This document shows, in pieces, positions 3 to 61,971 of a DNA stretch of 64,000 bases; position 1 is the stretch's first letter, and each line of letters opens with the position of its first letter. The notes under the pieces were generated by a model, which was not told the origin of the DNA, did not search any database, and saw only the letters and a list, made by a program, of their open reading frames with translations. The position numbers and the translations under genes were made by a program. The stretch is from Minisyncoccota bacterium (GTDB taxonomy: Bacteria; Patescibacteriota; Minisyncoccia; Phycocordibacterales; Phycocordibacteraceae). Location of the stretch: contig DASPLK010000002.1 in the NCBI GenBank assembly GCA_035627595.1, forward strand, positions 1,824 through 65,823. Reading direction: 5' to 3'.

Positions 3-1652
3 GTGACGGCGACCGGCAATGTCGGTATCGGTTCGACTTCGCCGCGCTCTACGCTTACCGTTGTCGGTTCGGCCTGCTTCAGCGGCGGTACAGGCTCCAC
101 TGCGCTTTGTGGCACGACCGCAGGTTCTATCTACTACCGCACCGCATCAACCGGCACGTACGACGTCGCCGAGAATTACGTTACGTCCGATCTCAACCTC
201 GAGCCGTCGACCATCGTTGCACTTGATACTACGACCGGCATGACCATCACGACTGCGATGCCAGGCTCTATCCCGCTCGGTATCGTCTCAAGCGATCCGG
301 GTCTCACGCTCGGAGGCGCGGATCCGGAAGCAGACATGTCGGTCATGCGTCCAGTCGCTCTTTCCGGACGCGTACCTGTGAAGGTGTCGACTGCAAATGG
401 TCCGATCATGGTGGGTGATCGCCTTATGCTTTCGACAACAACACCGGGCGTTGCGGTGAAGGCACTTCGAAGCGGCTACACGGTTGGTATCGCACTTGAG
501 TCGTACTCAGGATCGGGCAACGGCACGGTCGAAGCGTTCGTCGAGAATCAGTACTATCTTGCACCAACTGATATCTACTTCGACGGCGCAACCGGCCGTA
601 TCGGTATGGGTACCCAAACCCCGGGCCATGCGCTTCAGGTTGCAGGTGATATCGGCGCTACCGGATTCGTGAACACCTCCACAAAGGCTGCCAAGACCGA
701 TATTACATACGTCACTGATGAAGAGGCGGCTACTATGCTCGAGAAGCTGAAGAATCTTCAAATCGCGCAGTACCACTACAAGATGGAGAGCGGCAGTAAT
801 CCGCTTCGCCTCGGCCTTATCGCAGAGCAGGCTCCGACAGAAGTACTATCCGCAGATGGTAAAGGTGTCGATATCTACAAGCTCGCGACCTTCACCCTTG
901 CGGGTGTCCAGGAGCTCGCTAAGCGCACCGACCTCATCGTCACGCGCCTCGATTCACTTGAGGAGCGTCTCGTGCAGCTTGAGAGCGGCAGTATCACGGT
1001 CGGTACGGGTACACCAAGCTTCTCAACTACGACCTTGGTAGCAGCGCTTAAGAGCTTCGGTGTCATCATCGAGAATGGTTTCGCAAAGTTCCAGACGCTC
1101 GCAGCACTTAAGTTTGTTGCCGCAACTGATGAGAACGGCCAGTCCTCAGCCGGGGAAGGCGAGATCCTTGCAGGCAATACGGTCATCGAGATTGAGAACG
1201 AGTTCGCTGCGCCGAATAGCAAGATCTTCGTTACCTTCACTTCTGCGCTTGAAGGCTCCTGGTTTATCGATGATAAGGAGGAGGGAAGCTTCCGCGTCCG
1301 TCTCTCAGAGGCGCAGGACGAGGATGTCACTTTTGACTACTTCATCGTTCAGACGGATAAGGAAATTGAAGAGGAGCCGGAGGAGGTGCCGGTAGTTGAA
1401 GAAGAGCCAGTTATCGAAGAGCCGCCAGCCACAACGCCACAGGATCCAACCCCAGCCCCAGACGCACCGCCGGTAGTAGTAGATACAAACCCAGCTCCAG
1501 AGCCGACTCCAACACCTGAGCCTGTGGCAGACGAGCCTGTGGTGGTCGATACTGCTCCAGAGCCCCAGCCAGCCCCAGCCCCCGAGCCTCAGCCAGCTCC
1601 GGAGCCAGCTCCAGTACCGTCCCCTGAGCCTGCTGCTCCCGCAGGCGTATAG
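3..1652 (+). CDS. Tail-fiber domain protein with C-terminal peptidase S74-like intramolecular chaperone domain and Pro/Glu-rich tail (5' end truncated by window edge)
   Basis: The ORF runs from the window edge. The segment KAAKTDITYVTDEEAATMLEKLKNLQIAQYHYKMES...RLGLIAEQAPTEVL...KGVDIYKLATFTLAGVQELAKRTDLIVTRLDSLEERL matches the endosialidase/tail-fibre chaperone (peptidase S74) consensus pattern. The C-terminus is a PEPTPTPEP low-complexity tail. Confidence 0.6.
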   Translation: MTATGNVGIGSTSPRSTLTVVGSACFSGGTGSTALCGTTAGSIYYRTASTGTYDVAENYVTSDLNLEPSTIVALDTTTGMTITTAMPGSIPLGIVSSDPGLTLGGADPEADMSVMRPVALSGRVPVKVSTANGPIMVGDRLMLSTTTPGVAVKALRSGYTVGIALESYSGSGNGTVEAFVENQYYLAPTDIYFDGATGRIGMGTQTPGHALQVAGDIGATGFVNTSTKAAKTDITYVTDEEAATMLEKLKNLQIAQYHYKMESGSNPLRLGLIAEQAPTEVLSADGKGVDIYKLATFTLAGVQELAKRTDLIVTRLDSLEERLVQLESGSITVGTGTPSFSTTTLVAALKSFGVIIENGFAKFQTLAALKFVAATDENGQSSAGEGEILAGNTVIEIENEFAAPNSKIFVTFTSALEGSWFIDDKEEGSFRVRLSEAQDEDVTFDYFIVQTDKEIEEEPEEVPVVEEEPVIEEPPATTPQDPTPAPDAPPVVVDTNPAPEPTPTPEPVADEPVVVDTAPEPQPAPAPEPQPAPEPAPVPSPEPAAPAGV

Positions 1653-35937: not shown

Positions 35938-37677
35938 TTAGGAACGTTCTTGAATTTCTGTAGTGAGCCGCGAAACGAGCTCTTCCCTTGAAAGTGTCTC
36001 GGAGGACCCGCCCCTTGATTCAAGGGTAACCGCACCGCTCTCAACCTCTTTATCGCCAAGCACGAGGAAGTAGGGGACACGCTCCTGTTTCGTAGCGCGT
36101 ATCTTCTTACCAAGAGATTCGCTCGCGTCATCAAGTTCGGCGCGCACGCCAGCAGCCTGGAGCATGGTGGATACTCCGCGCGCATACTCGTGATGCTTAT
36201 CGGATACCGGCAATACCTTTACCTGCACCGGAGAAAGCCAGAGCGGGAAGTTGCCGCCAAGGTGCTCAATCAAGACCGCAGAGAAGCGCTCTATGGAACC
36301 CATAATTGCGCAATGAATCATAACGATGCGCTCTTTCTCGCCCTTCTCATTAACACAGGTGAGGTCGAAGCGCTCCGGCTGGTTCATATCGAGCTGGATG
36401 GTCGCAACCTGGTGCTGGCGGCCCATAGAATCGGTTGCCATGAAGTCGAGCTTGGGACCGTACATCGCCGCCTCACCTTCGGCTTCGAAATAATCAGCAT
36501 TGCGCTCTTTGGCAATCTCGCGAAGCGCGTTCTCTGCATTTGCCCAGATCTCAGGCGTACCCAGGTAGCTCTCCATGTTCTTAGGATCATGGAAAGAGAG
36601 ACGAACCTTGAGCGTGTAGCCAAAGGCGCTGTAGAAGGTATCCACCATGTCCCAGATGCGGAAGAATTCTTCTTTGACCTGGCTCTGGCGACAGAAGACG
36701 TGACTGTCATCCTGTGTAATCGAAAGGACGCGTGTAAGCCCGCCGAGTTCCCCGGACTGCTCATCACGATAGACCATGGTGGTCTCTGCGTAGCGCTGCG
36801 GCATCTCGCGGTAGGAGTGGGGCTTGCGGGCGAAGATCTGCGTGTGGTGCGGGCAGTTCATAGGCTTCAGTGCGTATTCCTTGCCTTCGCGGGTCGTGAT
36901 ACGGAAAAGCTCATCGGCGAACTTAGCCCAGTGACCAGAAGTCTCATAGAGATCCTTCTTAGTAATGTGCGGGATGGTTACGCGCTGGTACCCGTTCCTC
37001 TGGCGGAGTTCCCAGATGAAGCGGTCGAGCTCATGGCGCACGATGGTGCCTTTTGGCGTCCACAAGGGAAGTCCAGACCCTACGAGGGGGGACGTGATAA
37101 AGAGGTCGAGTTCCGCGCCGAGCTTACGATGATCGCGCTTCTTGGCTTCCTCGATCTGCGCCTGGTACGCCTCTAGCTCTTCTTTGGTATCGAAAGCAAG
37201 ACCATAGATGCGGGTGAGCATCGCGTTCTTCTCATCGCCACGCCAGTATGCGCCTGCAACTCTATCAAGTATGAACGAGTCGGCTTTTATGTCATGAGCG
37301 GGCGTCTCACTGTGGCCGCCCCTACATAAGTCAGTGAAGCCGCCCGCAGTGTAGAGGGTGATAGGCTCTCCCTTGCTAACAATTTCGTCTATGAGCTCGA
37401 GTTTGTAGGGATTGCCGCTAAAGCGGTCGCGAGCATCTTTTTCAGATACTTCCGTGCCCGTCATATCCTTCCAGTCGGCAAGAAGCTCCCGCATGGAAGC
37501 AGTGAGCGCAGCGAGTTCGGTCTCTCCCGGGGTCTCACCGCCTGAGAAATCGAAGTCGTAATAGAAGCCGGTCTCAACAGCCGGCCCGATAGTGGCCTTT
37601 GCGTGGGGATAGCGCTCCTTCACTGCAGCGGCAAGCAAATGGGCCAAGGTATGGCGTTTTTCTTCTAGCGTTGGCAT
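35938..37677 (-). CDS. thrS: Threonine--tRNA ligase (short form lacking N-terminal TGS/editing domains)
   Basis: The MPTLEEKRHTLAHLLAAAVKERYP start matches the catalytic-core start of ThrRS. Class II motifs and a C-terminal anticodon-binding domain follow. 579 aa. Confidence 0.8.
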   Translation of the reverse strand: MPTLEEKRHTLAHLLAAAVKERYPHAKATIGPAVETGFYYDFDFSGGETPGETELAALTASMRELLADWKDMTGTEVSEKDARDRFSGNPYKLELIDEIVSKGEPITLYTAGGFTDLCRGGHSETPAHDIKADSFILDRVAGAYWRGDEKNAMLTRIYGLAFDTKEELEAYQAQIEEAKKRDHRKLGAELDLFITSPLVGSGLPLWTPKGTIVRHELDRFIWELRQRNGYQRVTIPHITKKDLYETSGHWAKFADELFRITTREGKEYALKPMNCPHHTQIFARKPHSYREMPQRYAETTMVYRDEQSGELGGLTRVLSITQDDSHVFCRQSQVKEEFFRIWDMVDTFYSAFGYTLKVRLSFHDPKNMESYLGTPEIWANAENALREIAKERNADYFEAEGEAAMYGPKLDFMATDSMGRQHQVATIQLDMNQPERFDLTCVNEKGEKERIVMIHCAIMGSIERFSAVLIEHLGGNFPLWLSPVQVKVLPVSDKHHEYARGVSTMLQAAGVRAELDDASESLGKKIRATKQERVPYFLVLGDKEVESGAVTLESRGGSSETLSREELVSRLTTEIQERS

Positions 37678-41232: not shown

Positions 41233-41763
41233 ATGTATATGGTTTCCACGCGTAATACGCGCGGCTTCACGCTCATCGAGCTCCTGGTTGTCATCGCCAT
41301 AATCGGCATTCTCTCAGCTACGGTGCTCGTTTCCTTGAACACCGCACGTGGGAAAGCACGTGATGCTCGGCGTCTTTCCGACCTGCGGCAAGTGCAAATT
41401 GCGCTTGAGCTCTATTACCACGCACACGGTTCATATCCCGTATCGCCAGCAGGTGGCTTCACCTGGGCGCGCAGCTCATGTGTCACCGGAAGTCAGTACT
41501 ATACGGCGCTTGAGCCGTTAGTGTCTGAAGGGTACTTGCCATCCATACCTATAGATCCGGTCAACCAAAGCAGTGGCAGTCCTATACATTGCTACTGGTA
41601 CTTTACCGAACAGCACGATGGCGGAAACTGCGGTACTGCCGTTAATGCGAATGAATACGAGTATGTCCTCTTCTTCTCTACGGAGGGTGCCGATCTAAAC
41701 CATCCAGTAGGTCGCGTTGGTGCTTCTGGCCCATCGTGGTGCCTGCTCGGTCCGAAGAGGTAG
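41233..41763 (+). CDS. Type IV pilin-like protein (prepilin signal)
   Basis: M(YM)VSTRNTRG|[52 protein letters not shown]. Alternative start at 41239. Confidence 0.85.
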   Translation: MYMVSTRNTRGFTLIELLVVIAIIGILSATVLVSLNTARGKARDARRLSDLRQVQIALELYYHAHGSYPVSPAGGFTWARSSCVTGSQYYTALEPLVSEGYLPSIPIDPVNQSSGSPIHCYWYFTEQHDGGNCGTAVNANEYEYVLFFSTEGADLNHPVGRVGASGPSWCLLGPKR

Positions 41764-41831
41764 GTCGTATATCCTAGAAATGGCGCGTAGCAATATTAAA
41801 TTCTATGTAGCGTGCGTGCTATAAAAGGTAT

Positions 41832-42341
41832 ATGTTCACTTCCCGGAGCGAGCGCGGCTTCACGCTTATCGAGCTCCTGGTCGTCATCGCTATCATCGGC
41901 ATTCTATCGGCGACCGTGCTCGTGTCTTTGAATACAGCGAGAACAAAAGCGCGGACCGCAGCCATAAAAGCGCAGGTCATTGAATTCCGTAAATTAATGG
42001 AGCTTGAACACCTTCAGACTGGAAGCTATGTGAACCTTGCACGTGGTTGGGTTGGAACCGGCGCCACAAACCCCACATGCGAAAATCGTGGATATGCCGG
42101 AGCATACGCGGATCAGGCTGTTGCCATCTGTAGAGGCATAGTCTCAAATGGCATTGCGGGGGAAAATGTTTTACATACAGGCGTAAATACCGCACTCGGG
42201 TTTACCTACACAGAGGACGTGGCAATTATGGCCGTGCTTCCCGACGGAAACATGTTTTGCGCGGGGTCTAGCGGAGCGACTTCGGAGGTTGCATTTTTAA
42301 GTGCGAATTATGTACAGCCCGGCTGTTACAGCAACCCCTAA
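41832..42341 (+). CDS. Type IV pilin-like protein (prepilin signal)
   Basis: MFTSRSERG|[40 protein letters not shown]. Confidence 0.85.
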
Positions 42342-43751: not shown

Positions 43752-44675
43752 ATGGCTAATCGGCACCTTGCACGCTCCGTTGTTCTGCAGACGCTCTTCG
43801 AGTGGGATACTGCGCATATCCCGCAGGAGGGAGTCGCAGAAGTCCTCGCTCGCAACATCGAGGAGTTCAGCGGCGACGAAACCGACCGGCCATTTATGGA
43901 ACAACTTCTCCAAGGCGTACTCGCCAAGCAGCCAGATCTCGACCTCGTTATCGCGAAAGCCGCTCCGGACTGGCCTATAGACCGCATCGCACCAGTAGAC
44001 CGAAACATCCTACGCATCGGCCTTTTTGAGCTTCTGTTTGCGGACCGCGCGCAAGTTCCTGCCAAGGTTGCAATAAACGAGGCGATTGAACTTGCCAAGG
44101 TGTTTGGCGGCGATTCCTCCGGCCGCTTTGTGAATGGTGTGCTTGGCGCTGTGTATAAGGAAATGGGCGAGCCCGGCAAGGATGAGACCGGCAAGAAGCA
44201 GCGTGTGAGGCGTGAGGACCTGCCGGTTGAGCACCTCGGCGGCGCAGTTGTGTACGCAGAGCACGAGGGTCAGTATTTCCTTGCGCTCGTCCATGATGTG
44301 TTTGGACACTGGACGCTCTCAAAGGGCAGACTCGCAGAAGGCGAAGACCTCAAGGACGGTACAAAGCGCGAGATCAAGGAGGAGATGGGTATCGATATTG
44401 AGATTGAACAAAAGATTGGTGAAAACGAATATGTCGCGTCGCACCCGGAGAAGGGAAAGTTCCGCAAGCATGTCACGTATTTCTTAGCGCGCTCCGAGTT
44501 TCTGCCGCTTAAGCTCGAGGAGGGGAAGGGCGGTCTCGATGACACGCGCTGGTTCCGTCTGACAGATATTCTTGACCTCAATTTCTATGACGACATGCTC
44601 CCTATCGTCACTCAGGGCGTACAGGAACTTCTCAATAAGTCGCAAGCAAAGAAAGAGGCAAACGAACAGCGCTAG
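43752..44675 (+). CDS. nusB: NusB antitermination factor fused to a C-terminal NUDIX hydrolase domain
   Basis: N-terminus ARSVVLQTLFEWD...RIGLFELLF...AINEAIELAKVFGG (NusB fold signature). C-terminus GRLAEGEDLKDGTKREIKEEMGI (Nudix box GX5EX7REuXEEXGu). Confidence 0.75.
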   Translation: MANRHLARSVVLQTLFEWDTAHIPQEGVAEVLARNIEEFSGDETDRPFMEQLLQGVLAKQPDLDLVIAKAAPDWPIDRIAPVDRNILRIGLFELLFADRAQVPAKVAINEAIELAKVFGGDSSGRFVNGVLGAVYKEMGEPGKDETGKKQRVRREDLPVEHLGGAVVYAEHEGQYFLALVHDVFGHWTLSKGRLAEGEDLKDGTKREIKEEMGIDIEIEQKIGENEYVASHPEKGKFRKHVTYFLARSEFLPLKLEEGKGGLDDTRWFRLTDILDLNFYDDMLPIVTQGVQELLNKSQAKKEANEQR

Positions 44676-44713: not shown

Positions 44714-45400
44714 ATGAGCGATATCGCTTCTCATGCCGCAAGGCTCGGAATAGTATTCTCCGACCTCGACCTTTTGGCCGAGGCGTTAACGCATCGCTCC
44801 TATTTGAACGAGCATAAAGCCGCTAAGGCGCATAACGAGCGGCTCGAATTTTTGGGGGATGCGGTTCTTGAGCTCTCCATCACGCACTTCCTCTTTACGA
44901 AGTTTCCTAACAAGCCCGAGGGTGATTTGACCGCATATCGAGCGGCACTCGTGAACACATATTCTCTAGCTGAGACCGCAGAGGAGATCGGCCTTAATGA
45001 TATGTTGCTTCTCTCAAAAGGTGAGGCAAAGGATACCGGCCGCGCGCGTCAGATAATCCTTGCTAACGCGTTCGAAGCGGTACTAGGTGCAGTCTATCTC
45101 GACCAGGGGTACGAAGCTGCCAATGCCTTTGTTGAGCGGCACCTATGTCCAAAGATAGACGATATCGTCGCAAAGCGCGCATACCAGGACGCCAAAAGCC
45201 GTTTTCAGGAACTCGCCCAGGAGAAGAAGGGACATACACCGACCTATAAGACCATCAGTGAAGAAGGTCCAGATCACGATAAGAAGTTTACCGTCGGCGT
45301 ATTTGTCGGACATGACGAAGTAGCGCACGGAGAAGGAAAGAGTAAACAGGAAGCTGAGCAGGCAGCAGCAACAGCCGCCCTCTCTAAACTTGGGTGGTAA
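44714..45400 (+). CDS. rnc: Ribonuclease III
   Basis: ERLEFLGDAVLEL RNase III signature plus a C-terminal dsRBD. Confidence 0.85.
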   Translation: MSDIASHAARLGIVFSDLDLLAEALTHRSYLNEHKAAKAHNERLEFLGDAVLELSITHFLFTKFPNKPEGDLTAYRAALVNTYSLAETAEEIGLNDMLLLSKGEAKDTGRARQIILANAFEAVLGAVYLDQGYEAANAFVERHLCPKIDDIVAKRAYQDAKSRFQELAQEKKGHTPTYKTISEEGPDHDKKFTVGVFVGHDEVAHGEGKSKQEAEQAAATAALSKLGW

Positions 45401-45404
45401 ACGA

Positions 45405-45426
45405 GTGTCCTCCCGAGGGAGGACAC
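45405..45426. terminator. Hairpin between the convergent rnc and Gam-like genes
   Basis: gtgtcctccc-gag-ggaggacac. Confidence 0.5.
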
Positions 45427-45435
45427 CGTGCCGTC

Positions 45436-46059
45436 TCATTCCTTAACTTTTGCGCGCTTGGGTTTTGTTACTTCCCATGTGATGTCGCTCGGATCTTCTG
45501 GGAGAGAGCCCTCAAGTCGCACGTCGCCACTCTTATTTGGACGGATCTCAATCTTCGTATCGAAGATCGTCGTCACCGTTTTGAGCCGCTTTGCGAGCTC
45601 GGGATCTTCCTGAAGCGCCTGCAAGTTCGGCGCGTCGGCGCCTCTCCTGATAAGCTTTCGTGCAAGGCCCTTGCGTCTAACCTCCTTGAAGAACGCATCC
45701 GTGTCGCCGCCTTTTATGCTAAAGCTCGGGCGTGGCACATCACGCTGACGAATCTCGCCAGTCGAGAAGCGCACGGTACGCATGCCGCGCTCGACCAGTT
45801 CATCCCATCGCGAGAGCACAAACTCGATAAGTACGTTCGCGACTGCAGTTGCCTTTAAAAGCTCAGGGTTTGAGAGAGCCTTCTTCTGCTCCTGAACCGC
45901 TGTCATCTTCTGCTGCAGCTTGGCTAAGCGCTTGTCGCACCGCGCTTCGATGGAACTCCGCTTGTTGAGGGCGACACCGATCCGCGACAGGAGACTAGCC
46001 GCCTCCCGGCGCGACGTAGGCGTTACAGGAATCAGGTCAGTTAAAGAACCGTTAGGCAT
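45436..46059 (-). CDS. Bacteriophage Mu Gam-like host-nuclease-inhibitor (DNA-end-binding) protein
   Basis: N-terminal coiled-coil region. The block VRFSTGEIRQRDVPRPSFSIKGGDTDAFFKEVRRKGLARKLIRRGADAPNLQALQEDPELAKRLKTVTTIFDTKIEIRP is collinear with the Mu Gam core (KFATGEV..R.RPPSVSIRG.DAV.E.L.R.GL.RFIR...EINKEAI.). My alignment is from memory, not a search. Confidence 0.55.
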   Translation of the reverse strand: MPNGSLTDLIPVTPTSRREAASLLSRIGVALNKRSSIEARCDKRLAKLQQKMTAVQEQKKALSNPELLKATAVANVLIEFVLSRWDELVERGMRTVRFSTGEIRQRDVPRPSFSIKGGDTDAFFKEVRRKGLARKLIRRGADAPNLQALQEDPELAKRLKTVTTIFDTKIEIRPNKSGDVRLEGSLPEDPSDITWEVTKPKRAKVKE

Positions 46060-46177
46060 GTCCGCCTCCTTTCAATGGTCCGCACATAAGCATGCAGAGC
46101 TCGTTATTAAGAGCGGCTGAAGCTTTATCTGCAGTTCTCCCTTACGGCCCTCCAAAGGCGCGCTATACTACGTACAA

Positions 46178-48394
46178 ATGCTAAAGCGCCTTGAAATCGC
46201 AGGGTTCAAGTCCTTTGCCCGGAAGACCGTGCTCGATTTCTCGAGTGCCGCTACGGCTATTGTCGGACCTAACGGCTCCGGAAAGAGCAACGTTGCCGAG
46301 GCTTTCCGCTTTGCACTTGGCGAGCAGTCGATGAAGTCGATGCGAGGAAAGAGAAGTGAGGACCTTATTTGGGCAGGTAGCCACTCAACCGCCCGCCAAA
46401 ATAGGGCAGCGGTTGCAATCGTGTTCGATAACACGCCACGCAAGGGTGTGCGCGTATTTCCGAAGCTAGATTTTGATGAGGTTGCCATTGAGCGCGTTGT
46501 ATACCGCGATGGTGTGAGCGAATACTCGATCAATGGCTCTAAAGCGCGTCTGCGCGACATACAGGAGCTACTTGCAAGCGCAAACATTGGTGAGACCGGA
46601 CATCACATCATTTCTCAGGGAGAGGCCGACCGCATTCTCATGGCACATCCGCGCGAACGTCGCGCGATGCTCGAGGACGCACTTGGGTTGAAAGTTTTTG
46701 AGTTCAAAAAGCAAGAGGCCGAGCGAAAGCTCGAGAAGACTGAGGAAAACATGCGCGAGGTTGAAGCGATCCGTAGGGAGCTTGCACCGCATCTACGATT
46801 CCTCGCTAAACAAGTCGAGAAGCTCGAACGCGCGGAGGAGCTTTCACGTGAGCTCGCTGACGTCTGCCGCACATACTTTGCGATAGAGGACCTATACCTA
46901 AAGGAGGAGAAGATAAAAGCTGAACGAGAGCGGTCTGAATCAAGCCAACGGCTCCAAGAGGCAGCTGGCGAGCTCGCTGTGTTTGAGGAGCGCGCTACAA
47001 CCGATAGCGAGGGCATGAAAAAGACAGAGGCGGTCCGTATCGCTGAGCGTGAACTCGAAAAGCTACGCGAAGAGCGCACCCAGCTTACGCGCGATATTGG
47101 TAAGGCCGAGGGAGCGCTCGATGCCGCAAAGCGACGGAGTGCGCAGGTCGCTGATTCCCCATACGTTAAGATCGCGCGTGAGGAGCTCTCTATTCTCAAA
47201 CAGGAAGTAGATCGCCAAACGGATGCTGCGATCGCTGCAGAAGACCCCGGAGCTTTAAAAGCAGCGCTGGTCGCCCTTCGAGGGGCCGTATCAGCATTCT
47301 TTGAGCGATTTGGCAGTCCGAACGATGACCTCCTGGCAGAGGAGCAGAATGCGGTCTATAGCCTTCAGAACCAATACGATGCGCTCGCGACTAAGGACCG
47401 TGAGCTAGCGGAACAGATAGAGATTGCTCGTAATGCGCTCCAAAAGGCACGCGAAGCGCAGATTGCATACCAAGAGACAGGTAGGGAAGAGCGGCACCGC
47501 CTCCTCTCGCTTGCCGAGACGCGCGCGCATGAGGAGGCGAACGTTGCGCGCGCAGAAGCACGTCTTAATGAGCTACAGCTCCTTGCGGAGGAATTGATGC
47601 GTGATAAAGCCGAGGTCGTGCCATTAGCAGGACGCAATGCACTTTCATATGAGGCGCTTACGGATCTTCCTAATGAAGATCGTCGTACTCAAGAGGATCG
47701 AAAGCGCTCGATGGAGCGTTTGAAGATTCGTGTCGAGGAAGCGGGTGGTTCAGGCGAAGACGTACGCACTGAATACCAAGAGACGAAGGAACGAGAAGAG
47801 TTTCTTGCTAAGGAAGTTGAGGACCTCGGCAAATCTGCAGAAGGACTGCGTGAGCTTATACATGATCTGGATACCGAGCTTCAGAAGACCTTCTCTGAAG
47901 GTCTCGCAAAGGTAAATGCATCGTTCAGTGAGTTCTTCGCACTCATGTTCGGAGGCGGCTCTGCGAAGCTTGTTTTGGAAGAGCCTACAGCAGTTGATGA
48001 AGAAGAAGAGGAAATGGACATTCGGCCGAAGAACGAGCGGCTGGGTATCGAGATAGCCGTTAACCTGCCGAAGAAACGCCTTCAGTCACTAATGCAGCTC
48101 TCAGGGGGTGAGCGAGCGCTAACCTCCATTGCGCTCATCTTTGCCATGAGCCAGGTGAATCCTCCGCCATTTTTGATACTTGATGAGACCGATGCAGCTT
48201 TGGATGAGGCAAACTCCCGCCGTTACGGCGATATGATTGAGGAGCTCGCGAAAAAGTCTCAGCTAATCGTAATCACGCACAACCGCGAGACTATGAGCCG
48301 CGCAGGCATCCTCTATGGCGTGACTATGGGAGGCGACGGTGTTTCCAAGCTCCTGTCAGTAAAATTTGAAGAAGCAGTTGCGGTCGCGAAGTAG
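46178..48394 (+). CDS. smc: SMC-family ATPase (short, no recognisable hinge)
   Basis: N-terminal LEIAGFKSFARKTVLDFSSAATAIVGPNGSGKSN Walker A. C-terminal LSGGERALTSIALIFAM...LILDETDAALD signature and Walker B. Long central coiled-coils. 738 aa. Confidence 0.7.
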   Translation: MLKRLEIAGFKSFARKTVLDFSSAATAIVGPNGSGKSNVAEAFRFALGEQSMKSMRGKRSEDLIWAGSHSTARQNRAAVAIVFDNTPRKGVRVFPKLDFDEVAIERVVYRDGVSEYSINGSKARLRDIQELLASANIGETGHHIISQGEADRILMAHPRERRAMLEDALGLKVFEFKKQEAERKLEKTEENMREVEAIRRELAPHLRFLAKQVEKLERAEELSRELADVCRTYFAIEDLYLKEEKIKAERERSESSQRLQEAAGELAVFEERATTDSEGMKKTEAVRIAERELEKLREERTQLTRDIGKAEGALDAAKRRSAQVADSPYVKIAREELSILKQEVDRQTDAAIAAEDPGALKAALVALRGAVSAFFERFGSPNDDLLAEEQNAVYSLQNQYDALATKDRELAEQIEIARNALQKAREAQIAYQETGREERHRLLSLAETRAHEEANVARAEARLNELQLLAEELMRDKAEVVPLAGRNALSYEALTDLPNEDRRTQEDRKRSMERLKIRVEEAGGSGEDVRTEYQETKEREEFLAKEVEDLGKSAEGLRELIHDLDTELQKTFSEGLAKVNASFSEFFALMFGGGSAKLVLEEPTAVDEEEEEMDIRPKNERLGIEIAVNLPKKRLQSLMQLSGGERALTSIALIFAMSQVNPPPFLILDETDAALDEANSRRYGDMIEELAKKSQLIVITHNRETMSRAGILYGVTMGGDGVSKLLSVKFEEAVAVAK

Positions 48395-48749: not shown

Positions 48750-49997
48750 ATGGCCGCATTCCAATACTTCCAAGAGCACGTATCAAACGCCGCAAAGGTC
48801 CTCTCCCTTACTTCTGAGCGCGCGGAACTGCTTATGACACCAGACCGCGTTCTTCGTGCGAATCTATCCATACGCATGGATGATGGGAGCACGGCGTCTT
48901 TTCCTGCATACCGTGTCCAGTTCAATAACGCGCGCGGCCCATACAAGGGCGGCATACGCTTCCATCCGGAAGCCGATGAGGATGAGGTCTCGGCGCTCGC
49001 TGCAATGATGGCGGTGAAATGCGCGGTTGTCGGCATTCCGCTTGGAGGTGCAAAGGGCGGCGTTGCTGTTGACCCTAAAAAACTTTCTAAGGATGAAATA
49101 CATGCCCTTGCGCGCGCATACGTTCGCGCATTTGCGGAACATGTAGGTCCCGATCAGGATATTCCGGCGCCTGACGTATACACAAATCCGGAGATTATGG
49201 GCGTGATGCTTGATGAGTATGAGCATATCGTCGGAAGATCCGCGCCCGGCATGATCACGGGAAAGCCACTTTCGCTTGGTGGAAGTCTTGGGCGCGATAC
49301 GGCGACTGCAGATGGTGCGATCGCTGTTTTGAAGAGCCTTATGCAGGACAGGGGACTTGATCCAAAAACGCTTCGAGCGGGCGTACAGGGTGCCGGAAAT
49401 GCAGGGGCACAGGCAGCGCATCTACTTTATTCAATGGGCATGAAAGTGACAGCGCTTGCCGACAGCAAGGGAACGCTCCTTGTGTCAGATGGAATGGATG
49501 TAGAGAGCGTGCTTGCAGTTAAAGAAGCAGAGGGTTCGGTTATACACGCTGCGCCGCTTCAGAATGAGGAAGGAAAGATACTGCCAGCCGATGCCGTTAT
49601 TATCGAAGGATGCGACGTACTCGTGCCTTCCGCCCTGGAGGAGCAGATAACTGAATCAAATGCGAAGGAAGTTAGAGCGGGTATTGTACTTGAGGTTGCG
49701 AACGGTCCAACGACACCAGCCGCAGATACCATCCTTGCATCAGAAGGTGTCGTCGTAGTTCCTGATGTTTTGGCAAATGCTGGTGGGGTCACGGTGTCGT
49801 ACTTTGAGTGGATACAAAATCGCACAGGACACTATTGGACCAGAGGAGAAGTGAAGGAACGGTTAGAGGGTGTAATGACGAAGGCGTACCGCGATGTCGC
49901 GGATATTGCTGCAGAACGCGGAATCACGCTTCGTGAGGCGGCATATGTGCTTGGCATAGAGCGGATAGACGAGGCGGTGCGTGCGCGTGGTCGTTAA
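48750..49997 (+). CDS. gdhA: Glutamate dehydrogenase
   Basis: KGGIRFHPEADEDEVSALAAMMAVKCAVVGIPLGGAKGGV (GDH active-site Lys region) and the NAD(P)-binding GxGNAG motif. Start chosen at MAAFQYF. Confidence 0.85.
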   Translation: MAAFQYFQEHVSNAAKVLSLTSERAELLMTPDRVLRANLSIRMDDGSTASFPAYRVQFNNARGPYKGGIRFHPEADEDEVSALAAMMAVKCAVVGIPLGGAKGGVAVDPKKLSKDEIHALARAYVRAFAEHVGPDQDIPAPDVYTNPEIMGVMLDEYEHIVGRSAPGMITGKPLSLGGSLGRDTATADGAIAVLKSLMQDRGLDPKTLRAGVQGAGNAGAQAAHLLYSMGMKVTALADSKGTLLVSDGMDVESVLAVKEAEGSVIHAAPLQNEEGKILPADAVIIEGCDVLVPSALEEQITESNAKEVRAGIVLEVANGPTTPAADTILASEGVVVVPDVLANAGGVTVSYFEWIQNRTGHYWTRGEVKERLEGVMTKAYRDVADIAAERGITLREAAYVLGIERIDEAVRARGR

Positions 49998-50022
49998 AGT
50001 TGCATGTCCAGGATTCTGGGCT

Positions 50023-50427
50023 ATGTTGGAAAGGGTTCAACTGCTCTGGGAGGGCACAATGCTTGCGACGCAACAGCCTTTGCTGCCGTTTACCTATCTT
50101 CCCCTTGTACGGGAAGAGGACGATAAACCAGCGAAGGTGAGCTACCGTAATCTACTTCGCCTGGTCTGCGCAGAGTTCGGTATCGAAGAAAGCGAACTTT
50201 GCGGTGAGTCCCGCGTTCGTAAGATCGCACGACCTCGCCAAGTGCTCATGTACCTTGCGCACTTTGATGCGCGCAAGTCTTATCCGTGGATCGGAGCAAG
50301 GATCGGTGGTCGCGACCATACGACCGCGCTGCACGGCAAGAGAAAGATCGAAGAGCTTCTGGCCGCTGGAGACACAGCTATCAGAGAATCGATCGGACGT
50401 ATTCAAGAACAATACACAAATGCCTAG
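50023..50427 (+). CDS. Standalone DnaA C-terminal (domain IV, HTH DNA-binding) -like protein
   Basis: RKIARPRQVLMYLAHFDARKSYPWIGARIGGRDHTTALHGKRKIEELL is collinear with the DnaA domain IV signature (ARPRQVAMYLA...IG..FGGRDHTTV.HA.RKIE). No AAA+ domain. An alternative start at 49981 would overlap gdhA. Confidence 0.6.
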   Translation: MLERVQLLWEGTMLATQQPLLPFTYLPLVREEDDKPAKVSYRNLLRLVCAEFGIEESELCGESRVRKIARPRQVLMYLAHFDARKSYPWIGARIGGRDHTTALHGKRKIEELLAAGDTAIRESIGRIQEQYTNA

Positions 50428-58000: not shown

Positions 58001-58232
58001 AATGGAGGTGTGGGCACTCCTCGGATACGGTTCCGCGTACACGCTCCGCGAGATGCTCACCATCAAGTCTGACGACATCACAGGCCGCTCGGCGACCTTC
58101 GATGCAATCGTGAAGGGCGAACCGGTCTCCCATGCGGGAACCCCGGCATCGTTCTCCGTACTTACCAACCAGATCCGCGGTCTTGCGCTCGATATTGAGC
58201 CGCTCGCGCGCGATAACGACATGGACGCATAG
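55053..58232 (+). CDS. rpoB: DNA-directed RNA polymerase subunit beta
   Basis: Conserved blocks FVAEEVKG, SALGPGGL, NYEDAIIVSERL, GRHGNKGVISR, GQRFGEMEVWAL. 1059 aa. Confidence 0.9.
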   Translation: MRNTKTLTQKTFAAFQPPRVPFPDLVGHQRDSFNWLLKDGFMELFKEFSPIPDYSGKKFELRIDGFEIGDPKGDEESARENMRTYEVPLKVSVTLLNKTMGTEKTQEIFLADIPMMTPHGSFIVSGVERAIVPQLARSFGAFFVAEEVKGKNFFGAKIIPSRGVWIEIESDADGAIYVKIDRKRKFPVSNLLTVFGAGTKEDVLARFKGDAVATAAMQATIAHDTANSLEDAYVEIHRRMRDGDLATPENAKQYVNALFTPERYDLSKVGRYRLNQRFAGKLDAKALADRVLSLDDLTKIVAEIARMNQDPNAVPDDIDHLGFRRVRFVGELLQARMRVGMSRMKRNIQDRMSTIESETSLPMAFINPRPFQASVREFFTANQLSQFMDQQNILAELENMRTLSALGPGGLTRERAGFEVRDVHPSHYGRLCPIHTPEGQNIGLILRLALHARTNEFGVIETPYAVVKNGAVTEEVVYLNALEEESRVIAHGATPIDEKGRIVPDVIEARKNGEPAIVSRNEIDLIDASTYQMFSAATAMIPFVDHDDANRALMGSNMQKQATPVLVPEAPLVATGIEGHAARNTGRLVISEDAGEVTYVDARKITVEGAKGKKEYKLQGLTQTNQNSAFMQRPSVRLGDKVKRGDVLADNSSTDQGQMALGQNVRVAFMSWSGANYEDAIIVSERLVENSKFTTIHIEDFECAVRDTKLGQEVTTHDIPNVGELRLKNLDEEGVVRIGAEVRPGDILVGKVTPKGETQLTPEERLLRSIFGDKAKDVKDTSLRMEGGKRGRVIGVRVFSREKGDQLESGIIKKIVVTVAQVRNVSVGDKLAGRHGNKGVISRVLPVEDMPYDKDGNPVDVILTPLGVPSRMNLGQILELHLGLAANTLNYQAIVPPFAGATADEIRNELEAAGFDRSGKMQLFDGRTGAAFAQAISVGYMYILKLHHMVEDKIHMRSIGPYSLITQQPLGGKAQNGGQRFGEMEVWALLGYGSAYTLREMLTIKSDDITGRSATFDAIVKGEPVSHAGTPASFSVLTNQIRGLALDIEPLARDNDMDA

Positions 58233-58254
58233 TCCTGTCCTAATCCACATTCCT

Positions 58255-61200
58255 ATGGCTACACCAAACAGCACCGGAAAGCGCAACCCAGGACCGCACG
58301 CGCGCGACTGGAACTCGCTACGTCTTTCGCTCGCAAGCCCGGAGCGTATCCTTGAATGGTCCCGCGGTGAAATCACCAAGCCGGAGACCATCAACTACCG
58401 CACCCAGCGTTCGGAGAAGCACGGCCTCTTCGATGAGAAGATCTTCGGTCCGGAGAAGGACTACGAGTGTTACTGCGGCAAGTACAAGGGCATTCGTTAT
58501 AAGGGCATCGTTTGTGATAAGTGTGGTGTTGAAATCACGCGTTCCATCGTCCGTCGCGAGCGTATGGGTCACATCGAGCTTGTTACTCCTGTTGCTCACA
58601 TCTGGTTCCTACGCTCGATGCCTTCTCGCATGGCGCTTCTTCTTGGCGTTCCTGCAACTGACCTGGAGAAGGTTATCTACTTCGCTGGCTACATCGTCAC
58701 GAAGGTAAACGAAGATGTGAAAAAGCGTCTTCTTAATGAGCTTGAGGCTGAATATAAGAGTAAGCACAAGGAGTGCGCAGACGATAAGCAGCGCGATGCT
58801 CTAAAGGAGCGCATGACGCTTGCTAAGCAGGAGATCGACACGATCGTTGTAGGTAAGGTATTCGATGAGATCGCATACCATCGCTACTCGGTTAAGTACG
58901 GCACACTGTTCGAGGCGCGTATTGGCGCAGAAGCCATCTACGACCTCTTCCGCGGACTTAAGATGGAGGAGCTCAAGACAAAGCTTGAAGAGCGTTACAC
59001 CAGCGCAGGCCAGGCAGAGAAGGAGAAGCTCGCAAAGCGCATCTCCCTTATCTCCAATATGCTTGCTGCTAAGACGCGCCCTGAGTGGATGTTCCTCACG
59101 AAGATTCCGGTCATCCCGCCAGCGCTTCGTCCGATGGTCGCACTTGAAGGTGGTCGCCATGCAACGTCTGACGTTAACGACCTATATCGTCGCGTCATCA
59201 ACCGCAATAACCGCTTGAAGAAGCTTCTTGATATTCACGCACCGGAGGTCATCCTTCGTAACGAGAAGCGCATTCTTCAAGAGGCAGTAGACGCGCTCCT
59301 TGATAACTCGATTAGGAAGTCAGGAGCTAACGCAGGTGCAATGACGCCAGCACAGCGTCGTCCTTTGAAGAGTCTCGCTGACTACCTCAAGGGTAAGCAG
59401 GGCTACTTCCGCCAGAACCTTCTCGGTAAGCGCGTCGACTACTCCGGCCGCTCCGTGATCGTGGTGGGTCCTGACCTTGAGCTTGATGAGTGCGGTCTTC
59501 CAAAACATATGGCGCTCGAGCTCTTCCGCCCGTTCGTCATCGCAGGACTTCTCTCGCGCGAGCTCGCCTTCAACATCCGTGGTGCAGGTCGCCTCATTGA
59601 AGACGGCGTACCAGAGGTGTGGGAGATCCTCGAAGAGGCTATCCAGGGCAAGTATGTGCTCCTCAACCGCGCGCCAACGCTTCACCGCCAGGGTATCCAG
59701 GCGTTCCGTCCTCGCCTTATCGAGGGTGATGCTATCCAGCTCCATCCGCTCGTCTGTCCGGCCTTCAACGCTGACTTCGATGGTGACCAGATGGCAATTC
59801 ACGTGCCGCTTTCAGAGGAGGCACAGTGGGAGGCAAAGAACGTCATGAGCGCGAACAAGAACATCTTGAAGCCGGGTTCAGGCGAAATGATTGTCATGAC
59901 CCAGAAGCCGCTTGATATCGTGCTTGGTACCTTCTGGCTCACCAAGGCCGTTCCAGGCGCAAAGGGTGAGGGCATGTACTTCGACTCTCCAAATGCGGCC
60001 ATCCTCGCGCACGAGTACGACGCTGTCGACTTGCGTGCAATGGTGAAAATTTTGCCTCGTGCAGACAAGGCGAAGTATGAGCAGTTCAATGGTGAGTTGT
60101 TTGAGACCACCGTCGGACGACTCTTGTTCAACACGGTCCTTCCAAGCGACTACCCATTCATCAACGATGCCATCACTAAGAAGGTGCTTTCCGGCATCAT
60201 GCATGACTGTATGATCCGCTACGGCATCGATGCGGTTCCGGGCATCGTCAACAAGGTTAAGCGCTTCGGATTCGAGTACGCTACCAAGTCAGGCGTGTCC
60301 TGGTCTATCGACGATGTGTCGGTCCCTGCAAAGAAGGGAGATATCATCGAAAGCGCTAAGACAAAGGTGACTAAGATTGAGGATGACTACCGCAACGGTC
60401 TTCTGACCGAGGAAGAGAAGCGCCGCATGGTTATTGAGATCTGGCACGGCGCAAAGACCGAAGTCGAGAAGGCTGTCGAGGAGCAGCTCGATCCGGCAGG
60501 CTCTGTCCATGACATGGTGCGCTCCGGCGCCCGCGGTACCTTGGGTAACCTTACCCAGATGGCCGGCATGAAGGGTCTCATCCAGAACACCGCCGGCGAG
60601 ACCATCGAGGTGCCGATCGTGTCCTCGATGACCGAGGGCCTCAACCCGGTCGAGTACTTCATGAGTACGCACGGAGCGCGTAAGGGTCTTACCGACACCG
60701 CGCTTGGAACCGCACGTGCAGGCTACCTTACCCGCCGCTTGTTCGACGTCGCGCAGGATTCCATCGTTACGGAAAGAGATTGTGGCACCAAGCGTGGTAC
60801 CGCTATCTCCCGTGTTTCAGCGTCGGGTATACGCATTGACTTCGCAGAGGCTATTCGTGGCAGGACGCTCTCCGCTGAGGTTGCTGACCTCTTCAAGAAG
60901 GGTCATTACCTCACCACAGAGGACTCGGTGAAGATCTCCGAATCAGATGTACAGGCGGTCACGGTTCGTTCGCCAATGGCATGTGAGACTCGCTACGGAA
61001 TCTGCGGTACCTGTTACGGTATGGATCTAACGACCCAGCAGCCGGTAGATCTCGGCGAGGCGGTTGGAACGGTCGCAGCACAGGCTATCGGCGAGCCGGG
61101 AACTCAGCTTACGATGCGTACCTTCCACGCTGGCGGTACGGCATCTGTGGGCGGCGATATTACCCAGGGTCTCCCACGTGTCGAGGAAATCTTCGAGAAG

Positions 61201-61971
61201 CGTTCGCCGAAGAATCCAGCTGTCATCTCTAAGACCGACGGTATGGTCACGGAGATCAGGGAGGAGGGCAGGGAGCGCATCATCGTGGTCGCTCCGGAAG
61301 CGGGTCAGGGCAAGAAGAACGGCGCCGCAATCGAGTACACTGCACCGCACCCGCGTATGGCGCTTGTTAAGGCTGGTGACGCAGTCGTACGAGGCCAGTT
61401 CCTCACCGACGGTTCCGCGGATCTTGACGATCTCTTCGAGTATGCGGGCCGCGCAGCGGTACAGGAGTACATCATTGCGGAGACCTCCAAGATCTACGAG
61501 CTTCAGGGTGCATCCGTGTCCCGTAAGCACCTCGAGGTCGTGGTCAAGCAGATGTTCTCCCGCGTTAAGATCACCGACACTGGCGATTCTGACTACTCGG
61601 TTGGCGATGTCGTCGAGCACTGGGAGTTCGCAGAATCGGTGAAGACTATGGAGGCAGAAGGGAAGATTGCGCCTAAGGCGCGTGAGATGGTCCTTGGTAT
61701 CAAGGAGTCCGCATTGTCTCGCCGCTCATTCCTTTCAGCTGCGTCCTTCGAGCAGACCACGAAGATTCTCATCAACGCAGCTCTCAAGGGCTCCGTCGAT
61801 ACGCTTCGCGGCCTCAAGGAGAATGTTATTCTCGGCCGCCTCATTCCGGCTGGTACGGGCTTTGCAGGAAGCAAGAAGCACGAGGCTATCTCGGAGCTTC
61901 AGGCAGAACGCGCAAAGCTTCGTCGCGAGATGGAGGAAGAGGCAGAGCGCCAGATGGCAGAAGCTGTCTAG
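58255..61971 (+). CDS. rpoC: DNA-directed RNA polymerase subunit beta'
   Basis: Zn-finger [32 protein letters not shown] catalytic motif, bridge-helix and trigger-loop blocks. Start chosen at MATPNSTG, 23 nt after the rpoB stop. Confidence 0.9.

Follow-up and report, generated by a model that had tools for sequence, protein, structure and literature searches.

Between the genes for RNase III and for a short SMC-family ATPase, the 64-kb stretch of DNA analysed here as a whole (the window) carries a minus-strand ORF of 207 aa at positions 45436-46059. This gene, gam, begins with an ATG and encodes a basic protein (pI 10.1) of the Mu Gam family (PF07352). The original prediction had described an orphan Gam-like gene at this spot; the ORF is present with a sequence identical to the one quoted there, and its flanks are as described, with rnc (RNase III, 44714-45400 (+)) forming the left border of the slot and smc (SMC-family ATPase, 738 aa, 46178-48394 (+)) the right one. 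Both border genes are conserved; smc is divergent from gam, and rnc marks the insertion site and lies outside Gam function. The exact protein has a public record, HYE23027.1, 'host-nuclease inhibitor Gam family protein [Candidatus Paceibacterota bacterium]', encoded on a 360-kb contig, and since this NCBI annotation already carries the name, the family label is not new. The GC content of the window is ~54%, and composition is unbroken at the gam locus.

To the left of rnc lie genes for DnaE, two type-IV-pilin-like proteins, RNase HII, L32 and a NusB-Nudix fusion, and to the right of smc genes for glutamate dehydrogenase, a DnaA-C-domain protein and RNase R. The remaining genes of the window encode glycolysis and pentose-phosphate enzymes, GyrB, PheT, RF, a glycosyltransferase and PKD/CARDB surface proteins, and there is one tRNA. 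A Pfam scan of the 40 larger ORFs, which left out about a dozen smaller ones and rpoC (58132-61971), found no integrase, transposase or phage structural gene, in agreement with the claim that gam has no phage genes beside it, and these 40 include all 10 genes at 41.2-52.4 kb around gam. Nor were RecBCD/AddAB, Ku or LigD found among these 40 ORFs, as expected from the earlier remark that the window appears to lack RecBCD-type functions. A search for repeats flanking gam returned nothing meaningful, just short two-copy chance matches. The NusB-NUDIX fusion (43752-44675 (+), 307 aa, with NusB at residues 7-136 and NUDIX at 165-282) is kept in every syntenic relative examined. As for the SMC-family ATPase, its 738 aa compare with ~1,180 in the canonical protein, a length that is kept in over 80 related species. 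Its match to TIGR02168 comes in two stretches and scores 548.7 bits, below the cutoff of 567.35; there is no SMC_hinge Pfam match, and the protein may be a short-armed, hinge-less mini-SMC.

The signals around gam and smc derive from comparative alignment; a consensus promoter and terminator scan of 45250-46300 called nothing, the hairpin described below included. Ahead of gam stands a Shine-Dalgarno sequence, AGGAGG (46065-46070 (-)), read from the sequence 5 nt before the ATG, and a sequence of this GGAG(G) type precedes gam in all aligned relatives. In the divergent spacer between gam and smc, a TTAAG-N6-CTGAAG motif (46107-46122) is shared by eight gam-bearing loci (W, L001, L003, L004, L006, L092, L010 and L014) and by 0 of 71 gam-less ones, which makes it a candidate promoter or operator element of gam. 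Within the 35 bp that separate the convergent stops of rnc and gam lies an inverted repeat, GC-rich and perfect over 10 bp, GTGTCCTCCC-GA-GGGAGGACAC (45405-45426), and relatives have equivalent rnc/gam hairpins of other sequence, with dG of -14 to -26 kcal/mol. The repeat in the window has no T-run and is a candidate bidirectional terminator. The smc gene has a -10-like TATACT box (46164-46169 (+)) that ends 8 nt before its ATG, and a TATACT or TATAAT box before the smc ATG (7-10 nt; counted within 40 nt) is found in 53 of 77 loci, empty-slot genomes included. No Shine-Dalgarno sequence occurs upstream of smc in the window (46164-46180). This suggests that the smc transcript is leaderless and that it is unaffected by the insertion.

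Relationship to the Gam protein of phage Mu

Searched as a single sequence, the gam protein matches PF07352 (Phage_Mu_Gam) with 30.7 bits, above the gathering cutoff of 28.3 (E 3.5e-7), over profile positions 7-138 of 149, so that the Pfam check proposed for the translation gave a significant result. PHROG 491, 'Mu Gam-like end protection', is matched at E 2.2e-8, and BLASTP against Mu Gam aligns 50 residues at E 5e-5. An NCBIfam search with the protein and a phmmer search of the single sequence against the PDB gave no match. As the single-sequence margin for PF07352 was narrow, relatives were gathered. A word-indexed search returned three only, at 48-53% identity, and the search with the resulting 4-sequence profile gave noise only; 59 relatives at E <=1e-3, 10 of them at <=1e-10, came from an exhaustive HMM search over 1.84 billion representatives. 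PF07352 was matched individually by 59 of the 61 aligned relatives, with a best E of 7.9e-41.

The alignment of the clade (A2) was used for hhalign and for a profile search of the PDB. Against Mu Gam (AF083977 5801-6325), hhalign gave 99.9% probability and an E of 1.1e-33, with 160 aligned columns that cover Mu Gam residues 11-171 of 174. In the PDB, the profile matched 2p2u_A, 'host-nuclease inhibitor protein Gam, putative', at E 4.4e-19, with profile positions 10-168 set against positions 7-165 of the 171 of the chain. Together with the Pfam score above its cutoff and PHROG 491, these two matches uphold the predicted assignment to the Mu Gam family.

The gam protein and Mu Gam are thus homologous along essentially the whole length of the latter; both are small and basic, with a conserved L-x-T-G-x-[IV]-x-x-R block and, as far as the predicted structure of the gam protein shows, a long N-terminal helix and an alpha/beta C-terminal domain. 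They differ in that pairwise identity is only ~23% and in that Mu Gam is without the C-terminal extension of ~29 aa, with its Trp/Pro signature and basic tail, that is found in the CPR Gam. In the window protein, the Gam core runs up to about residue 178 and the extension covers residues ~175-207, with a conserved, clade-specific W195-E-V-x-x-P200 and K/R-rich tail. The contexts differ as well: Mu Gam is encoded in the early operon of a transposable phage, whereas the CPR gam lies in a housekeeping neighbourhood of a CPR chromosome and is inherited vertically.

An AlphaFold2 model built from the 61-sequence alignment (pLDDT 94.6) has one long N-terminal helix (residues 17-83) and, after it, a C-terminal domain of mixed alpha/beta type, with two additional strands in the extension. 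The N-terminal coiled coil and conserved C-terminal block of the original prediction agree with this helix and domain. A first model, based on four sequences only, reached a pLDDT of just 65 and was dropped. When the monomer model was compared with the PDB by Foldseek, 2p2u was not retrieved despite the profile match; this may reflect the single extended helix of the model as opposed to the conformation in the crystal (dimer), or a long helix that defeats the search.

Bacterial Ku is the end-binding protein of NHEJ, with LigD as its partner, and some bacterial Ku proteins have lysine-rich tails. Homodimeric binding of double-stranded DNA ends is also the activity proposed here for the CPR Gam, and the short basic C-terminal tail of the gam protein recalls the tails of Ku. 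Beyond this, no similarity to Ku in sequence or structure was detectable, and there is no ligD nearby. The Foldseek search of the PDB with the monomer model, which covered bacterial Ku structures, returned no Ku, and Ku was absent from the PDB matches of the clade profile. In hhalign, the comparison was with one Ku sequence instead of a profile, that of Corndog gp87, and gave a probability of 0.2%; gp87 itself was verified as a genuine Ku by a match to PDB 8v53 at E 2.4e-41. The beta-barrel and ring fold of Ku was not recognised in the gam protein, and the 'Ku-like' part of the original prediction was therefore not reproduced, even though Gam is termed an orthologue of Ku in the literature (PMC3809393, PMC8987985). 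The Gam protein of phage lambda has in common with the present one its name and, as far as the present one acts like Mu Gam, the net inhibition of RecBCD, but it is an unrelated protein whose family is absent among the Pfam matches of the gam protein. Lambda Gam binds RecBCD and Mu Gam binds DNA ends (PMC3809393).

The gam gene departs from a phage or prophage gene of this family in its setting, as no phage genes were found among the scanned ORFs of the window and the rnc-smc synteny is fixed. Being encoded by a phage is a feature of context and not of a protein family, and Gam family membership therefore stands. Other chromosomal Gam homologues, as well as 2p2u, belong to the same family and likewise occur in bacterial genomes, where such homologues are generally described as prophage-borne (PMC8987985). 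According to PMC8987985, which summarises d'Adda di Fagagna et al. 2003, they lie in defective Mu-like prophages of Haemophilus, Neisseria, Salmonella and E. coli O157. Unlike these, the CPR gam has no prophage genes among the scanned ORFs of the 64-kb window and occupies a fixed slot across many species.

The rnc-smc junction and the history of gam

In the genomes of relatives, no fewer than 16 distinct Gam sequences lie in the same place and orientation as the gene in the window, that is, convergent with rnc and, where the smc flank is present, divergent from smc (loci L001-L006, L008, L090, L092, L094 and L098, and GTDB loci L010, L014, L029, L033, L041 and L078). The three close relatives of the window gene are all arranged in this way. 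So are distant ones: P0005 at 45% identity, P0007 at 33%, P0008 at 33% (seen from the rnc side), P0009 at 29% (from the smc side), P0012 at 27% and P0015 at 30%. The identity of slot Gams falls to about 27-33%, with flanking genes still 65-95% identical, and the rnc-gam-smc arrangement that was to be sought in related genomes is kept across at least 16 divergent ones.

The slot was surveyed in 80 species-representative GTDB loci anchored on SMC (63-73% identical), and the counts that follow rest on the 69 species loci that hold both rnc and smc. The junction is essentially empty (<=150 bp) in 25 of the 69, measures 150-400 bp in 6, and carries more than 400 bp of cargo (0.4-5.5 kb) in 38. This cargo comprises 66 ORFs, nearly all of them singletons. 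Gam is the most frequent tenant (6/69 loci), always on the strand opposite to rnc and smc, followed by an AI-2E transporter family in 3 loci; elsewhere we found a glycosyltransferase, a UDP-glucose dehydrogenase, a SAICAR-synthetase-like protein, an ion channel and many small ORFs. It follows from this survey that the adjacency of rnc and smc is ancestral, that in this lineage of Paceibacteria their junction (45401-46177 in the window) is a hypervariable hotspot of insertion, and that Gam is one tenant of it. As gam was lost from, or never present in, most of the sampled relatives, it is dispensable. No Gam pseudogene remnants were detectable in the gam-less slots, and the gene is thus either intact or cleanly gone.

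In a neighbour-joining (NJ) tree of SMC, all Gam-bearing genomes fall within one of two major clades, in which the slot is rarely empty and Gam is patchy. When all Gam relatives are placed in an NJ tree with Mu Gam as the root, the Gams that reside in the slot group together as one clade without exception, and the sub-groups {W, L001, L004, with L078 nearby}, {L033, L041, L029} and {L010, L014} mirror the SMC tree. Members of the slot clade also have in common an extension beyond the Gam core, with a median of 29 aa compared with 7 in Mu Gam, which bears the conserved signature ...LE...W-x-[IV]-x-x-P and, in most cases, a tail rich in K/R. One old capture followed by vertical descent and repeated loss is the most parsimonious, and a well-supported, account of the slot Gams. 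Both trees were built from short, divergent sequences by NJ and carry no support values, so that their congruence is suggestive of a single capture and not proof of it. Searches for relatives elsewhere added little: a metagenome scan gave nothing beyond the three syntenic relatives already known, a search of IMG/VR viral contigs with alignment A1 found no relatives of the close Gam clade, and tblastn of the protein against 50,697 phage genomes gave a chance match alone (E 8). P0010, the nearest Gam relative to be checked beyond the slot clade and the first, has 183 aa and 22% identity. A PIF1-family helicase is encoded 1.2 kb upstream of its gene, which has small ORFs around it on a metagenomic contig of 4.5 kb (L093:694-3837); this context looks like that of a mobile element and may represent the kind of source from which the CPR Gam was captured.

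Within the slot, gam is under purifying selection. Its dN/dS is 0.10-0.27, with 0.10 for the closest Gam pair (L003/L004), compared with 0.02-0.09 for its neighbours, values which are rough because dS is saturated (above 1). The GC3 of 0.635 and the host-trained CAI of 0.64 are both inside the host range. The features of an exapted mobile-element gene are thus found together at this locus: a fixed host position, purifying selection, sub-groups congruent with the host tree, host-like codons and an element that is gone. The original prediction had left the choice between a domesticated factor and a phage relic, and the conserved position in at least 16 genomes, the purifying selection, the host-like composition and the absence of prophage genes nearby favour the former.

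Possible roles of a host-resident Gam

Mu Gam is a highly specific binder of double-stranded DNA ends that blocks RecBCD and other exonucleases (PMC3809393). From the full-length homology, the basic charge and the apparently common architecture, we infer that the CPR Gam binds DNA ends too, and as the gene has been retained and vertically inherited at a fixed spot between two housekeeping genes, it probably serves the cell. The reading that we favour, and consider reasonably probable, is that gam encodes a genuine Mu Gam homologue that was captured once, has been inherited vertically and acts as a cap for double-stranded DNA ends. According to this reading, an ancestor of the Paceibacterota (Kaiserbacteria-related) lineage would have captured the Mu Gam homologue a single time into the rnc/smc junction, and passed it down vertically as a host gene that has its own ribosome-binding site, the putative gam-specific upstream motif and a hairpin in common with rnc. 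Judging from Mu Gam, this basic protein would most likely dimerise via its long N-terminal helix, bind blunt or near-blunt double-stranded DNA ends and shield them from exonucleases. In so tiny a genome its task in the cell could be to cap the ends of broken chromosomes or of other linear DNA. Mu Gam has been reported to promote the joining of host DNA ends, with the E. coli ligase as its helper (PMC8987985, citing Bhattacharyya et al. 2018), and the CPR Gam might similarly pass ends to the replicative NAD+-ligase.

Such a role could have a price, as over-produced Mu Gam in E. coli phenocopies recB, blocks DSB repair and lowers viability (PMC3809393). In view of the toxicity of sustained Mu Gam, a Gam that the host expressed constitutively would do harm if neither regulation nor a lack of end-resection-dependent repair in the host prevented it. 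The CPR gam may thus be regulated, perhaps through the gam-specific motif; its host may be devoid of resection-dependent DSB repair; or the activity of the protein may have been altered. Literature searches on double-strand-break repair in CPR bacteria returned nothing useful here.

The gene evolves fast for a member of its block. Compared with the three nearest genomes, Gam retains 47-55% amino-acid identity (dN 0.39-0.47), against 86-94% for its neighbours RNase III (86-91%, dN ~0.07-0.11), SMC (87-88%, dN ~0.09-0.10) and DnaE (92-94%, dN ~0.05-0.06), and 89-97% for the NusB-Nudix fusion (dN ~0.03-0.09). The dN of Gam is ~4-6 times that of its neighbours, and the most divergent genes of the block are Gam and one pilin. 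The gene is kept by selection, fully ameliorated and far less constrained than core genes; alternatively, it may be under conflict-type pressure. A domesticated Gam could act in conflicts between phage or other mobile elements and the host, instead of in chromosome repair. It might cap invading linear phage DNA and so prevent its circularisation, replication or packaging, which would amount to superinfection exclusion, or it might keep nucleases that are deployed in the course of infection or DNA scavenging away from the ends of the cell's DNA. The rapid divergence, in the company of a surface pilin, is in line with this, as are the patchy presence and repeated loss of gam, its location in a hypervariable hotspot and its phage origin, and for the fast dN and the divergence beside one pilin a conflict-related role fits at least as well as core repair. 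However, PADLOC assigned no family to Gam or to nine other slot cargo proteins, the remaining cargo consists of ordinary cellular and not defence genes, no partner effector gene is conserved beside gam, and the overall dN/dS, a gene-wide and not a site-specific measure, is well below 1. On balance, we regard a role in conflict as rather unlikely.

The divergent arrangement with smc raises a different possibility, namely that Gam and the 738-aa SMC-like protein act jointly on DNA ends, in a division of labour like that of Rad50 and Ku. The two genes have a common divergent promoter region, and this layout, with a spacer of ~90-170 bp, is kept in the gam-bearing loci from which the spacer was extracted; the SMC is itself unusual in its shortness, its sub-threshold TIGR02168 match and its lack of a hinge match in Pfam. 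The same SMC and -10 box are nevertheless present in most gam-less relatives, so smc neither depends on gam nor co-varies with it, and in L090 a gene other than smc lies beyond gam, at the position where smc would be expected. Because the rnc-smc adjacency is ancestral, the site of insertion alone explains why gam and smc are neighbours, and a partnership between them seems improbable to us.

The hotspot character of the slot, with its very diverse cargo, and the extreme divergence of the slot Gams, whose identity drops to about 25-30%, could also mean that a small mobile gam cassette, or a degraded prophage, was inserted repeatedly and independently at a preferred site. Against this stand the invariant orientation of gam, the absence of an integrase, a transposase or flanking repeats, the clade-specific C-terminal extension common to the slot Gams, their host-like composition and the lack of viral-contig relatives of the close clade. 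The single slot-Gam clade, with sub-groups that mirror the SMC tree, points the same way, suggestively so since the NJ trees are without support values, and we find repeated insertion quite improbable. That gam is no more than the inert, functionless relic of a decayed prophage, as its phage origin, solitary position and absence from most related species might suggest, is effectively refuted by the conservation data (an intact ORF in at least 16 genomes at saturated dS and the low dN/dS, a conserved Shine-Dalgarno sequence, upstream motif and hairpin, and other slots free of Gam pseudogene remnants), and is extremely improbable.

Returning to gam as the host gene for an end-capping protein, one may speculate further that a phage Gam was exapted as a substitute for Ku. 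In genomes without RecBCD/AddAB and Ku/LigD, a one-protein end cap together with the NAD+-ligase, and perhaps with the mini-SMC, would then provide a minimal system of end protection and end joining, and the C-terminal extension would be an adaptation to the host. We offer this extended version tentatively and think it unlikely in its entirety.

What stands out in these findings is the unusual and well-documented host-resident context of a protein that is already annotated as a member of its family; literature searches for Gam in Patescibacteria or CPR found nothing. In the CPR lineage the phage has been lost, and the host has kept Gam across deep divergence at one chromosomal address, with its own putative expression signals and a clade-specific C-terminal extension. 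If the end-capping role is true, this would be a clean example of a phage anti-nuclease that was exapted for repair or genome maintenance, here by organisms of minimal repair capacity. The protein would then also be a very small, divergent end binder, and a possible tool for DSB labelling or end protection alongside Mu Gam. The rnc-smc junction, for its part, could be a marker locus for gene flux in Paceibacteria.

Other features of the window

Several genes at some distance from the slot deserve mention. Between dnaE and rnhB, two tandem type-IV-pilin-like genes with the N_methyl motif (41233-42341 (+)) are missing from L003, and one of the two matches gam in its rate of divergence (48% identity to L001). 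On the other side of the slot, an ORF of 148 aa (49981-50427 (+)) consists of a DnaA C-terminal DNA-binding (HTH) domain alone; 17 nt of it are shared with the end of gdh, and tblastn finds no counterpart in L001, which is otherwise syntenic.

A class-II aminoacyl-tRNA synthetase gene (35938-37677 (-); tRNA-synt_2b/HGTP_anticodon in relatives) encodes a protein that is 92% identical to that of L003 and 50% identical to that of L001, whereas the adjoining dnaE is 92-93% identical in both. This contrast suggests a xenologous replacement of the synthetase in one lineage. At the far left, an ORF of 549 aa that is cut by the window start (3-1652 (+)) contains a Peptidase_S74 intramolecular-chaperone domain, a type known from the tail fibres of phages and from endosialidases. 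No other domain in the window is phage-flavoured; this one lies 44 kb from gam, and its bearer is more likely a CPR surface protein.
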